Positions 31,407 through 52,856 of a stretch of 64,000 bases of DNA are shown one piece after another. The DNA comes from an uncultured Gammaproteobacteria bacterium (GTDB lineage Bacteria > Patescibacteriota > Patescibacteriia > Veblenbacterales > UBA10138): assembly GCA_964348825.1 (NCBI GenBank), contig CAYGDX010000002.1:80609-144608 (forward strand), given 5' to 3'. Under the pieces are notes generated by a model. That model saw only the letters and a program-made list of their open reading frames with translations. It ran no database searches and had not been told where the DNA came from. How positions within the stretch are numbered: position 1 is the first letter of the stretch; each line of letters starts with the position of its first letter. A program made the position numbers and the translations under genes.

Positions 31407-31481
31407 CGGGGTGTAGTGTACCGGTAACATGCACCCTTGGGGTGGGTGTGATAGAGGGTTCGACTCCCTCCACCCCGACCA
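31407..31481 (+). tRNA. tRNA-Pro (anticodon GGG), CCA encoded
   Basis: Cloverleaf folds by hand: C1:G72 acceptor pair (Pro-specific in bacteria), anticodon loop UUGGGGU with G37, T-loop GGGTTCGACTCCC, discriminator A, 3' CCA. Confidence 0.75.
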
Positions 31482-31984
31482 AAGTGGTTTTTATTTATAG
31501 TACAATATTGTCTGCTATAAATTGCAAGTTGTTGGTTGTGACAACTAAAAAGCCCCATCCGAGCTTGATACAAATTGGAATCCCTGCTTATCAAGTGGGC
31601 AAGCCGCGGGTAGCGCTATAAAAAGCCAATTTATTTTTTGCCTTTTATTCGCTAACCTCGCGCTCGCGAGCCGCTGGGTATGTTCTCCGTTTGCATCCTA
31701 AAACGCAAACTATCTGAACTCCCAAAACAACAAGGTTGTAGAAATCAATTGGGTATCAAGCTAATTGGATAGAGCTATTTTCATTATACACCTAAAAATA
31801 TCCTATATAAACCTTAAAAAATATTAATTTAGCTAATTTTAGCCAAATTTTTATCCACAATCCCATATCTTAGCCAAAAATACCACCCACCAAAACTATA
31901 AATAATTTTTTAATAAATACTAATTTATGAAGTTGATTAAAAATTTTATAATTCCAATCAACCTCATGATAAATATTTATTAAT

Positions 31985-33196
31985 TTACAAAGACAATTTT
32001 TCTGCTATATAATCAACGTCTTTATCTCCCCGACCCGACAAGTTAACTATTACTACTTCACTATTTAACAAAGTCGGGGCCATTTTAATAATATATGCAA
32101 CAGCGTGGGAACTTTCTAACGCTGGAATTATTCCTTCTACTTTAGATAATTGCTGAAAAGCATCAATTGCTTCTTGATCGCTGACTGTAACATATTTTAC
32201 TCTTCCATTTTCTAATAAATCAGCGTGAATAGGCCCAACACCTGGATAATCTAAACCAGAAGCTATTGAATGAACCGGTAGTGGCTCTCCTTTATCATTT
32301 TGTAATAAATAAGTATACATGCCATGAATTGTGCCGGGCTTGCCTTTTGTTAAAGTGGCGGCATGTTCACCAGGTTTAAAACTACGCCCACTTGGCTCTA
32401 CTCCGATCATTTTTACATCATCATCTAAAAATTCGTTAAACAAACCAATTGCATTTGACCCGCCGCCCACACAAGCAACTAAATAATCGGGCAAACGATT
32501 TATTAATTCTAATATCTGTTTTCTGGCTTCACGGCCAACTATTGATTGAAAATCTCTTATCATCATAGGATAAGGGTGCGGCCCTACTACAGAACCAATA
32601 GCAAAAAACGTATCCTTATAATTCTGCAAGTAAGAAGCAAAAGCACTATCCACTGCGTCTTTTAAAGATCTCCCACCTTGATCAACCGGAACCACCTTAG
32701 CACCTAAAAGTTTCATACGAATAACATTGGGGTGCTGTTTGGCGATATCAATTGTTCCCATGTGAATTTCACAATCTAATCCCATAATTGCCGCAGCAGT
32801 AGCCACAGCTACACCATGTTGGCCAGCGCCAGTTTCAGCTAAAAGTTTTTTCTTTCCCATACGTTTAGCCAATAACGCTTCGCCTAAAGTATGATTTATT
32901 TTATGCGCACCAGTATGATTTAAATCTTCACGCTTAAAATAAATCTTCGCTCCCCCCAATTGCTCACTTAAACGCTTAGCAAAATATAGTGGCGAAGGTC
33001 TACCCACATAAGTACTCAAAAGTAATTTGAATTCATTTTGAAGACTTAAATCATTTTTAAACTCTTGATATGCTTCGGTTACTTCATCTAGAGCTAGTTT
33101 TAATTCTGGTGGAATAAATTGCCCGCCATATTTACCAAAGTATCCTTGACTATTAGGTAAAAATTTAAGTGATTCTTTTTTTTGATTGTTAAACAT
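31985..33196 (-). CDS. trpB: tryptophan synthase beta chain, stand-alone TrpB2-type
   Basis: PLP-enzyme motifs ([16 protein letters not shown]). 403 aa with a TrpB2-like N-extension. No other trp genes nearby. Confidence 0.8.
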
Positions 33197-33249
33197 AAAA
33201 TAAAATTAATAATAAAAAACTATAACCAAAGCCGCCAACAATAAGTGGC

Positions 33250-33345
33250 TTTATTTAAAAAACTGTAACGACGAAAAAATAAATTATTCATAATAAAACA
33301 CCTTCCACTTAAAAGTAAAAGGTGTGAATTTAAGATTTATTAATA
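33250..33345 (-). promoter_or_regulatory. attenuator-like leader upstream of trpB with mutually exclusive hairpins
   Basis: On the mRNA: AAAGGUGUG...CACACCUUU...AAGGUGUU followed by a U-run. The middle segment can pair either upstream (antiterminator-like) or downstream (terminator). Confidence 0.4.
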
Positions 33346-33404
33346 ATAAAACTACCCACACCTTTCGATTGGGTACCACCAATTTAATTTTAATTGATAA
33401 ATAA

Positions 33405-33725
33405 TCATACCTTAATTTTACTTAAAACTTTTTTAAACCCACCTGATTTACTATATTTCAATTCCCGCGCACCGCGACTTATGGTAGCTACTGCCACACC
33501 TAATCGATCACTCACTTCACGTATCGATAAACCTTTACAAAGTAATTTTACGATTTGCCAACGCAACGATAATTCGTTGTACTCTTTTGGCGTTAATAAA
33601 TCAGACAAAAAACTTTCTAGTTCCACTGTCGAAGAAAAATTACTTAACAAATTAGTAATTTCTCGACGAAATAACTCTTGTTTATATGATTGATTTTTAA
33701 CTAATTCTCTTCTACTCATACACAA
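33405..33725 (-). CDS. TrpR-like YerC/YecD family DNA-binding protein
   Basis: LTPKEYNELSLRWQIVKLL...GLSIREVSDRLGVAVATISRGAREL fits the Trp_repressor/YerC family. Immediately upstream of trpB on the same strand. Confidence 0.7.
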   Translation of the reverse strand: MCMSRRELVKNQSYKQELFRREITNLLSNFSSTVELESFLSDLLTPKEYNELSLRWQIVKLLCKGLSIREVSDRLGVAVATISRGARELKYSKSGGFKKVLSKIKV

Positions 33726-33761
33726 ACTTTAAATAATACATAGTTAATTATATTATTATCA

Positions 33762-33777
33762 CTGTACTAGTACAGTA
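33762..33777. promoter_or_regulatory. perfect 16-bp palindrome ACTGTACTAGTACAGT (trp-operator-like ACTAGT half-sites) upstream of the yerC-like gene
   Basis: Lies about 40 bp upstream of the regulator start. Contains GTACTAGTAC, resembling TrpR operator half-sites. Confidence 0.45.
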
Positions 33778-33939
33778 GCATGGGAACTTTAATAAGTCAA
33801 ACAATAATTGTGGATAATACTAATACCTAACTTAATTAAACAATTCTATCAACCAATAAGTTATAATCCACTTAAATAAAAACAACGGCCAATACATTTT
33901 TACCAGAAGTGATATTTTATTAAATTTACTAAACAAAAT

Positions 33940-33970
33940 AAAAAAGGCAATCAGAGATCAATTGCCTTAA
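33940..33970 (-). terminator. rho-independent terminator after the small-ORF cluster
   Basis: aaggcaat-N9-attgcctt stem followed on the minus strand by a U-run. Confidence 0.45.
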
Positions 33971-34003
33971 AAGATTATGTTAATTATTTTTGTTTTAAAA
34001 ATA

Positions 34004-52118: not shown

Positions 52119-52856
52119 ATGTCTATTAAAAATAAAGTCGCCATTGTTACTGGCGCGGGACGAGGTATTGGTAAGGGTATTGCCTTGGCTATGGCCAAAG
52201 AGGGTTATAGCGTAGTGGTATCGGATATTAATCAAACTGATGCCGAAGCTGTTACCAATGAAATAAAAGAATTGAGAGTGAAAGCTATTAGTATAATTTG
52301 CGATGTATCAAAAAAATTAGAGGTTGAAGAATTATTTAAACAAACTGTGGAACAATTTGGTGGTGTTGATGTACTAGTAAACAATGCCGGCATTTATCCT
52401 TTTATTTCTTTTGCTAATATGACCGAGGCCGATTGGGATAAAGTTTTAGACGTAAATTTAAAAAGTATTTTCTTAACTTCGCAAATCGCCACTAAAATCA
52501 TGCCCGCAGGTGGCCGAATAATTAATATTTCCTCTATCGCCTCCTTAGTTGGTTTTGAAGGATTGGTTCACTACTGCGCTTCTAAAGGCGGAATTAATGG
52601 ATTAACCCGAGCTTTAGCTTTGGAGCTCGCACCTAAAAAAATTACAGTTAATGTAGTAGCACCGGGCGCGATTAATACCCCGGGCGCCAACCAAACTGAC
52701 CAAACAATTTTAAAACAAACTATTGCCATGGTTCCTTTGGCCAGAATGGGTGAACCAGAAGATATTGCCAACGCTGTGGTATTTTTAGCTGATCAAAAAT
52801 CAAGCTACATTACCGGCCAAGTACTAGTAGTGGATGGCGGCTGGACATTAAGATAA
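52119..52856 (+). CDS. SDR family oxidoreductase (FabG-like 3-oxoacyl-ACP reductase family)
   Basis: TGAGRGIGKGIA, NNAG, and YxxxK (YCASKGG) motifs. Confidence 0.75.
   Translation: MSIKNKVAIVTGAGRGIGKGIALAMAKEGYSVVVSDINQTDAEAVTNEIKELRVKAISIICDVSKKLEVEELFKQTVEQFGGVDVLVNNAGIYPFISFANMTEADWDKVLDVNLKSIFLTSQIATKIMPAGGRIINISSIASLVGFEGLVHYCASKGGINGLTRALALELAPKKITVNVVAPGAINTPGANQTDQTILKQTIAMVPLARMGEPEDIANAVVFLADQKSSYITGQVLVVDGGWTLR

Follow-up and report, generated by a model that had tools for sequence, protein, structure and literature searches.

A probable trpR-trpL-trpB unit from an uncultured candidate-phyla bacterium, with predicted repression and attenuation by tryptophan

Introduction

How is a gene for the beta subunit of tryptophan synthase controlled, and what might it serve, when no gene for the partner subunit stands beside it? 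This question is raised by a locus in a 64,000-nucleotide (nt) stretch of contig CAYGDX010000002.1 (assembly GCA_964348825.1; hereafter, the window), in which a trpR-like regulator gene is followed by trpB. A preliminary description of the locus had envisaged a tryptophan-responsive repressor, an operator akin to that of Escherichia coli, an attenuator and a lone trpB for indole salvage, and this central idea is supported by the in-silico and comparative analyses reported here. The region is probably one transcription unit, trpR-trpL-trpB, which would be repressed and attenuated by tryptophan and would serve indole salvage. Its parts follow the textbook logic of E. coli, while the arrangement and the lineage are new.

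Leader and predicted attenuator

Both genes are encoded on the minus strand, and gene calls and Pfam agree with the earlier observation that a Trp_repressor-family gene directly precedes a co-oriented trpB. The pair apparently forms a separate unit because the hairpin at 33968-33934 closes the preceding small gene (Table 1). The intergenic spacer has exactly the length first reported, 208 nt (33197-33404), and folds better than its shuffled versions (z = -3.15); the G+C content of the window is 33-40%. The spacer is entered by a short open reading frame (ORF), here termed trpL, which the preliminary description had missed and whose ATG overlaps the TGA stop codon of trpR (ATGA). Leader codons 10-11 are tandem Trp codons, UGG UGG (33381-33376), and the ORF ends with a UAG codon at 33354-33352.

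Four RNA segments are arranged around this ORF. Segment 1 falls within the footprint of a ribosome stalled on the Trp codons, and segment 2, which ends with the leader stop codon, is covered once a ribosome has reached that codon. Segments 3 and 4 form a terminator hairpin (33325-33298) of 12 pairs at -14.6 kcal/mol, followed by a U-run. The earlier reading of three complementary segments and a U-run capable of alternative helices was correct in this respect.

Table 1. Features of the trpR-trpL-trpB region, listed in the direction of transcription; positions are those of the window
Feature	Position	Strand	Remarks
Terminator-like hairpin and T-run	33934-33968	-	AAGGCAATTGATCTCTGATTGCCTT + TTTTATTTTG; ends preceding small gene; 5' limit of unit
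Putative promoter	33772-33800	-	-35 TTGACT (33800-33795), 17-nt spacer, -10 TACTGT (33777-33772)
Candidate operator, perfect 16-bp palindrome	33761-33776		ACTGTACTAGTACAGT; overlaps -10 and likely transcription start
Conserved 12-bp operator core	33763-33774		TGTACTAGTACA
trpR-like repressor gene	33405-33719	-	104 aa from ATG; alternative TTG start 33725
Leader peptide ORF, trpL	33352-33408	-	MIIYQLKLNWWYPIERCG and stop; 18 codons
Segment 1	33367-33375	-	UACCCAAUC; pairs with 3' part of segment 2 (1:2 hairpin, -9.2 kcal/mol)
Segment 2	33352-33366	-	GAAAGGUGUGGGUAG; antiterminator 5' strand
Segment 3	33315-33328	-	UUCACACCUUUUAC; common to antiterminator (2:3, -17.1 kcal/mol) and terminator (3:4)
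Segment 4 and U-rich tail	33290-33310	-	AAGUGGAAGGUGU (33310-33298) + UUUAUUAU (33297-33290)
Second small ORF	33220-33291	-	MNNLFFRRYSFLNKATYCWRLWL and stop; two Trp codons; starts in terminator U-run
trpB, canonical tryptophan synthase beta (TrpB1)	31985-33196	-	403 aa
Inverted repeat just 3' of trpB stop	31927-31967	-	may be 3' end of unit; without clear T-run

The states of the ribosome were simulated by folding the RNA with the ribosome footprint masked. The free RNA adopted the 1:2 hairpin together with the 3:4 terminator. With a ribosome stalled at the Trp codons, the minimum-free-energy structure was the 2:3 antiterminator (-19.4 kcal/mol), with 0/12 terminator pairs left, and with the ribosome at the leader stop codon all 12 of the 12 terminator pairs formed. 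The antiterminator was much stronger than in controls in which the upstream segment was shuffled (z = -5.0; reached by 0/300 shuffles). The attenuator architecture first proposed was thereby confirmed in silico as a leader with tandem Trp codons (WW) plus a switch set by ribosome position, and the modelling shows ribosome-position-dependent attenuation upstream of trpB at this level.

According to the proposed mechanism, ribosomes leaving trpR would re-initiate at the overlapping ATG of the leader. When Trp-tRNA is scarce, they would stall at UGG-UGG and cover segment 1, which would allow the 2:3 antiterminator to form and transcription to read through into trpB. With ample Trp-tRNA, the ribosome would proceed to UAG and cover segment 2, the 3:4 terminator would fold and transcripts would stop before trpB.

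A leader with both a terminator and an alternative antiterminator might also sense a protein or a tRNA, as a T-box, a TRAP-type element or another riboswitch, instead of working through a leader peptide and the ribosome, and the stretch GGUGGUACC superficially resembles a T-box core. This stretch is the pair of Trp codons itself; it starts 24 nt past the trpR stop, too close for a Stem I or a specifier domain to fit in between. No array of (G/U)AG repeats is present, and Rfam returned no match at gathering score in the window and none, T-box and Trp_leader included, even at E <= 10 within 33100-34000. In addition, the sole element shared upstream of the antiterminator in related loci is an ORF with in-frame UGG-UGG. 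A T-box or other known RNA family was discarded based on the empty Rfam search and the identity of GGUGGUACC with the Trp codons, and a sensing RNA of any of these kinds is extremely improbable.

A second stable hairpin (33252-33228) lies 25 nt before the trpB ATG and is overlapped by the second small ORF (Table 1). The latter is not present in L002, the closest trpB locus, and may be either due to chance or a window-specific extra layer of control.

Comparative analysis

Homologues of the regulator were gathered from genomes and metagenomes, which yielded 48 non-redundant trpR loci (the fetched loci are designated L001 and so forth). The closest relatives among the fetched loci are nearly all metagenome-assembled genomes (MAGs) of candidate phyla (Patescibacteria, Peregrinibacteria). 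The locus of the window is also present in the sequencing runs ERR3094292 and ERR3094302. A short ORF with WW or WWW was found after trpR in 14 of the 48 loci, compared with a background of 3.7% in other stretches of these loci and none on the reverse strand (p = 1.2e-9), so that WW leaders are enriched approximately eight-fold after trpR homologues. The leader starts at -8 to +1 nt from the trpR stop in six loci, which suggests that translational coupling is conserved.

A hairpin and U-run follow the leader stop by 22-42 nt in 11 loci. Per-locus folding with shuffle controls was used to analyse them because the three closest loci, once aligned, provided too few leaders for meaningful covariation; in this alignment, UAUUGGUGG, the segment 2 motif GAAGG and the terminator are conserved, with a few compensatory changes. 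For folding, the terminators of L001 and L016 were set by hand. With a ribosome at WW, the segment at the 3' end of the leader paired with the 5' arm of the terminator in 11/11 loci, and with a ribosome at the stop codon this antiterminator pairing was lost in 10/11, the remaining locus, L016, retaining 5/6. The antiterminator z score was negative at every locus (mean -3.1 over the 11 loci). Terminator and leader sequences are unrelated between lineages despite the same geometry, which recurs in the 11 loci. In L017, L018 and L022, a G+C-rich hairpin begins at the second Trp codon itself (e.g. UGGUGGCUGGUCUAAAACCAGCC), and the geometry is more compact than that of the window.

These results also bear on the possibility that the spacer separates two independent genes, with the hairpin and U-run at 33325-33290 as a plain trpR terminator, a trpB promoter in the last 95 nt and a fortuitous WW ORF. 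Promoter-like matches do occur on the minus strand at 33319-33290 and 33238-33209, an alternative trpBA promoter is present in the trpR-trpB intergenic region of Chlamydia trachomatis (PMC7755916), and L001 possesses trpR, leader and terminator without any trpB. Such matches are, however, no commoner than in shuffled sequence (16 vs 12.4 ± 4.4), and no operator copy was found within the trpR-trpB spacer. Moreover, a plain terminator requires neither the antiterminator (z = -5) nor its placement such that ribosome position decides the fold, and the enrichment of WW leaders after trpR homologues argues against a fortuitous ORF. Two independent genes are thus unlikely, and attenuation within a single trpR-trpL-trpB unit is the preferred interpretation.

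Repressor identity

The regulator matches Pfam PF01371 (Trp_repressor) over residues 23-103 with 71 bits, for a gathering score of 27. It had been labelled YerC/YecD, which is not upheld: it scores 47.9 bits against the TrpR equivalog TIGR01321 and 31.7 bits against the YerC/YecD model TIGR02531 (cut-off 42.2), both under the respective cut-offs, and the pocket residues of TrpR as well as R69 are kept. Relatives P0003, L016 and L051 likewise reach 47-51 against TIGR01321. In a structure-chain alignment, the residues shared with E. coli TrpR comprise T44, P45, R54, I57, V58, R69, A80, T81, R84 and G85, and the changes relative to it are I79V, T83S, S86A, S88E and K72S (numbered as in E. coli TrpR). 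Judged by its ligand-pocket and DNA-reading residues, the regulator is TrpR-like rather than YerC-like.

A further option is a YerC/HisR-type or other TrpR-family member that responds to a ligand other than tryptophan and is only incidentally linked to trpB. The top sequence match in the PDB is indeed 3frw, a "putative Trp repressor" of the YerC/HisR group (E = 1.6e-6), marginally ahead of E. coli TrpR (5.5e-6), and the score under the TrpR equivalog cut-off points in the same direction. The statement that YerC proteins have no firmly established function is outdated, as YerC of Bacillus subtilis has been described as HisR, a histidine repressor (PMC9413887). In HisR, a Tyr replaces R69 of TrpR, the Trp pocket is replaced and the operator is cacTTTAn6TAAAgtg (PMC9413887). 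The window regulator, in contrast, retains the LTP...R...IV pocket residues and R69, scores higher with the TrpR model than with YerC/YecD, and is accompanied by a TrpR-like operator core (TGTACT/AGTACA) that differs from the HisR consensus. No HisR motif was found near the regulator gene, and matches across the window are at chance level (4 vs 6.6 expected). Furthermore, homologues of the regulator lead trp operons in many loci. YerC/HisR identity was rejected on scores, residues and operator, and a non-tryptophan ligand is very unlikely. A 99-aa ORF on the plus strand (33394-33693), antisense to trpR, is almost certainly a shadow ORF of an AT-rich coding region.

Operator analysis

A perfect 16-bp palindrome does lie upstream of the regulator, as stated in the preliminary description, whose coordinates were off by 1 nt (33761-33776, not 33762-33777). 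The palindrome ends 41 nt upstream of the trpR ATG. The window contains six perfect 16-bp palindromes, and the palindrome alone is not special. Its core GTACTAGTAC occurs once in the window vs 0 times in 100 shuffles. A search of ~330 kb from related loci returned 14 exact copies of this 10-mer, each within ~170 bp of a trpR homologue; they are located ahead of trpR or in the interval that separates it from the leader. All 11 distinct sites have a flanking T and A, which extends the core to 12 bp (Table 1).

According to the GNACT half-site rule for E. coli TrpR (PMC9413887), sites were also assessed with the pattern GNACT-N8-AGTNC, which recovers the true E. coli trp operator. Full sites are found beside trpR in L002, L023, L036, L038, L040, L050, L051 and L058, and those of the relatives are often paired with an overlap of 8 bp. 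The window operator matches the full pattern (TGTACTnGTnnACnAGTACA type, 8-bp spacer) at 6/8 positions at best. Additional regulon members reached through extra operator sites were considered and dismissed, as matches to TGTACTAGTACA with one or two mismatches are at chance level (5 vs 2.1 ± 1.5); one mismatched copy, at 52370, is inside an ORF.

The hexamers TTGACT and TACTGT constitute a putative promoter, whose -10 element is preceded by TGC (TGn); L001 has the same layout (TTGACT-17-TATTGT). This layout is naturally read as repression by promoter occlusion: Trp-bound TrpR would sit on the palindrome, which overlaps both the -10 element and the likely start site, and would thereby repress the whole unit, its own gene included (autoregulation).

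In L016 (4327-4450), L021 (4340-4365) and L014 (3601-3640), from Nomurabacteria and Paceibacterota, the operator is found after trpR, immediately next to the leader ATG (GTACTAGTACATG...). In the first of these loci, the 26-bp block of operator and ATG is duplicated, with copies 87 bp apart. This placement points to a TrpR-controlled promoter dedicated to the leader and trpB, and the mRNA for the leader peptide may be leaderless.

The structural gene

The product of trpB was previously held to be TrpB2-type, which is contradicted by the NCBIfam profiles. It scores 567.9 bits with TIGR00263 (trpB; cut-off 392.45), covering profile positions 1-384 of 385, whereas the TrpB2 models are far under their cut-offs (TIGR01415, 184.2 vs 518.85; NF009057, 189.4 vs 366). 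TrpB2 identity was ruled out on these scores. The protein is 48% identical to E. coli TrpB and contains no Trp among its 403 residues, compared with 1.1% in the long ORFs of the window.

No homologues of trpA, trpC, trpD or trpE were found within the 64-kb window when searched by tblastn with the E. coli proteins (best E 0.47), in keeping with the original remark that none is nearby. A stand-alone, Trp-free TrpB would condense scavenged indole with serine to yield tryptophan. As the context is trp-linked and trpA/C/D/E are missing from the window, a lone TrpB1 in indole salvage is the best reading of the output; it would depend on the remaining genome content and on the ability of TrpB1 to act without TrpA. 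The enzyme resembles the stand-alone TrpB2 salvage enzymes in being of beta-subunit type, without trpA and presumably acting on free indole, and differs from them in being a TrpB1, the type normally complexed with TrpA.

Discussion

Several findings weigh against a single, doubly controlled salvage unit. At the level of the attenuator, the terminator tail UUUAUUAU is interrupted, and no obvious Shine-Dalgarno sequence precedes the leader, whose translation would thus hinge on the assumed coupling to trpR. The promoter-like matches between the terminator and trpB (33238-33209) could drive trpB separately. Upstream, the -10 hexamer is weak and matches at 3/6 positions, which is why the promoter scan did not list TTGACT-17-TACTGT, and where relatives have clear outer GNACT half-sites, those of the window are degenerate. 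The regulator remains under the TIGR01321 cut-off of 67.25. With regard to the pathway, the absence of trp genes covers only 64 kb of a contig of at least 353 kb, trpA may be elsewhere in the genome, and canonical TrpB1 is normally activated by TrpA.

The locus has much in common with the trp system of E. coli. In both, a TrpR-family repressor is combined with an operator of ACTAGT/GNACT elements that overlaps the -10 region (a candidate operator in the window), and a short ORF with tandem Trp codons is accompanied by four RNA segments, which pair as 1:2, 2:3 or 3:4 and include an intrinsic terminator. Folding predicts that the window RNA responds to ribosome position exactly as that of E. coli does. 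In contrast to E. coli, where trpR is unlinked and trpL directly follows the promoter, trpR heads the regulated operon in the window, its stop is overlapped by the leader, and trpB is the sole structural gene. In sequence, the leader is unlike the enterobacterial Trp_leader family (no Rfam match), and the operator consists of one central GTACTAGTAC with weak outer half-sites.

The trpRBA operon of C. trachomatis shares the order trpR, intergenic regulatory region and trpB, the association with indole salvage, and autoregulation from a TrpR-controlled promoter upstream of trpR (PMC7755916). Chlamydia retains trpA, which is not in the window. Its annotated TrpL, 59 aa long and unvalidated, has Trp codons that are not consecutive and is a poor attenuator by prediction; YtgR attenuates in trans, and a separate promoter lies within the intergenic region (PMC7755916). 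The window leader, by comparison, is short, carries WW, appears coupled to trpR and shows a clean terminator/antiterminator pair, which makes the locus a clean natural counterpart to the chlamydial operon, whose leader peptide is doubtful. As to HisR, it belongs to the same Pfam family (PF01371) as the window regulator and is similar in size, with a palindromic operator, and its genes are often autoregulated and sometimes first in their own operon (PMC9413887). It controls his genes through cacTTTAn6TAAAgtg, whereas the window regulator is trp-linked and has a TrpR-like operator.

No description of this arrangement, or of a stand-alone trpB or TrpR, in the candidate phyla radiation, Patescibacteria or Saccharibacteria was found in the literature searched. 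The locus would extend E. coli-style two-tier Trp control to uncultured bacteria with reduced genomes, in which regulation is almost unstudied, and would do so in a compact layout with a leader peptide translationally coupled to the repressor gene. It further yields a metabolic prediction, namely that tryptophan may be obtained from environmental or host-derived indole by a single enzyme.

Associated genes in related loci

Linkage of the regulator to trp genes elsewhere, which the preliminary description had singled out for comparison, was found. A trpB alone follows the regulator in L002 (TrpB 86% identical) and L016 (70% identical), with trpA absent from both loci, and trpE-G-D-C-(F)-B operons follow it in several others (Peribacteria, Peregrinibacteria, Saccharibacteria and others). 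This trp-gene context independently ties the regulator family to tryptophan. The pairing of TrpR with TrpB2 that had been proposed for the window exists in L019 (4001-5910), where a trpR homologue, an operator-like GAACTAGTAC, a WW leader and a terminator precede a true TrpB2 (TIGR01415, 632.6 bits), and not in the window. In several loci, the regulator is followed by small proteins without a Pfam match.

It is conceivable, if somewhat short of probable, that TrpR and the translationally coupled WW attenuator make up a portable tryptophan-sensing cassette with varied cargo in candidate-phyla and other uncultured bacteria. The cargo comprises lone TrpB1 (window, L002 and L016), TrpB2 (L019), trpE-to-B operons (L051, L055 and L028) and small proteins of no known family (L001, L017/L018/L022, L021 and L040). 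If this holds, the uncharacterized cargo would represent new functions in tryptophan acquisition or Trp starvation, and a lone TrpB1 would be enough for indole salvage where the rest of the pathway has been lost. The variable-cargo module is the part most worth following, as a sensor module placed before uncharacterized small proteins offers a guilt-by-association handle on new tryptophan functions.

The locus L001 (6001-8400; identical to L005; MAG DeMMO2_23, JAGVEX010000009.1) is syntenic with the window and has the same upstream genes (ComEC, metallo-beta-lactamase-fold and ADK-like). It retains the operator, trpR, the WW leader and the terminator and lacks trpB. After the terminator come two uncharacterized ORFs (108 and 105 aa) and then tRNA-Pro(GGG), which in the window lies just past trpB (31407-31481) in the opposite relative orientation. 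Given this difference, the slot after the leader looks variable.

In L006-L011, L020, L043 and L045 (Peribacteria/Peregrinibacteria), the trpR homologue directly precedes trpE-G-D-C-(F)-B, and neither a WW leader nor the exact GTACTAGTAC core was found in these loci, which may have a diverged operator and no attenuator. Homologous small Cys-rich proteins without a Pfam match (blastp E 2e-13 to 4e-7) are encoded directly after the trpR homologue and WW leader in L017 (4416-4919), L018 (4430-4762) and L022 (4420-4797). The TrpR/WW-leader module is followed in L014 (3794-5934) by an uncharacterized 315-aa protein and a DAO-family flavin adenine dinucleotide (FAD) oxidoreductase, and in L021 (4492-5899) by an uncharacterized protein of 85-99 aa and then a phosphoribosyl pyrophosphate (PRPP) synthetase; the cargo of these two loci provides further candidate Trp-regulated genes.

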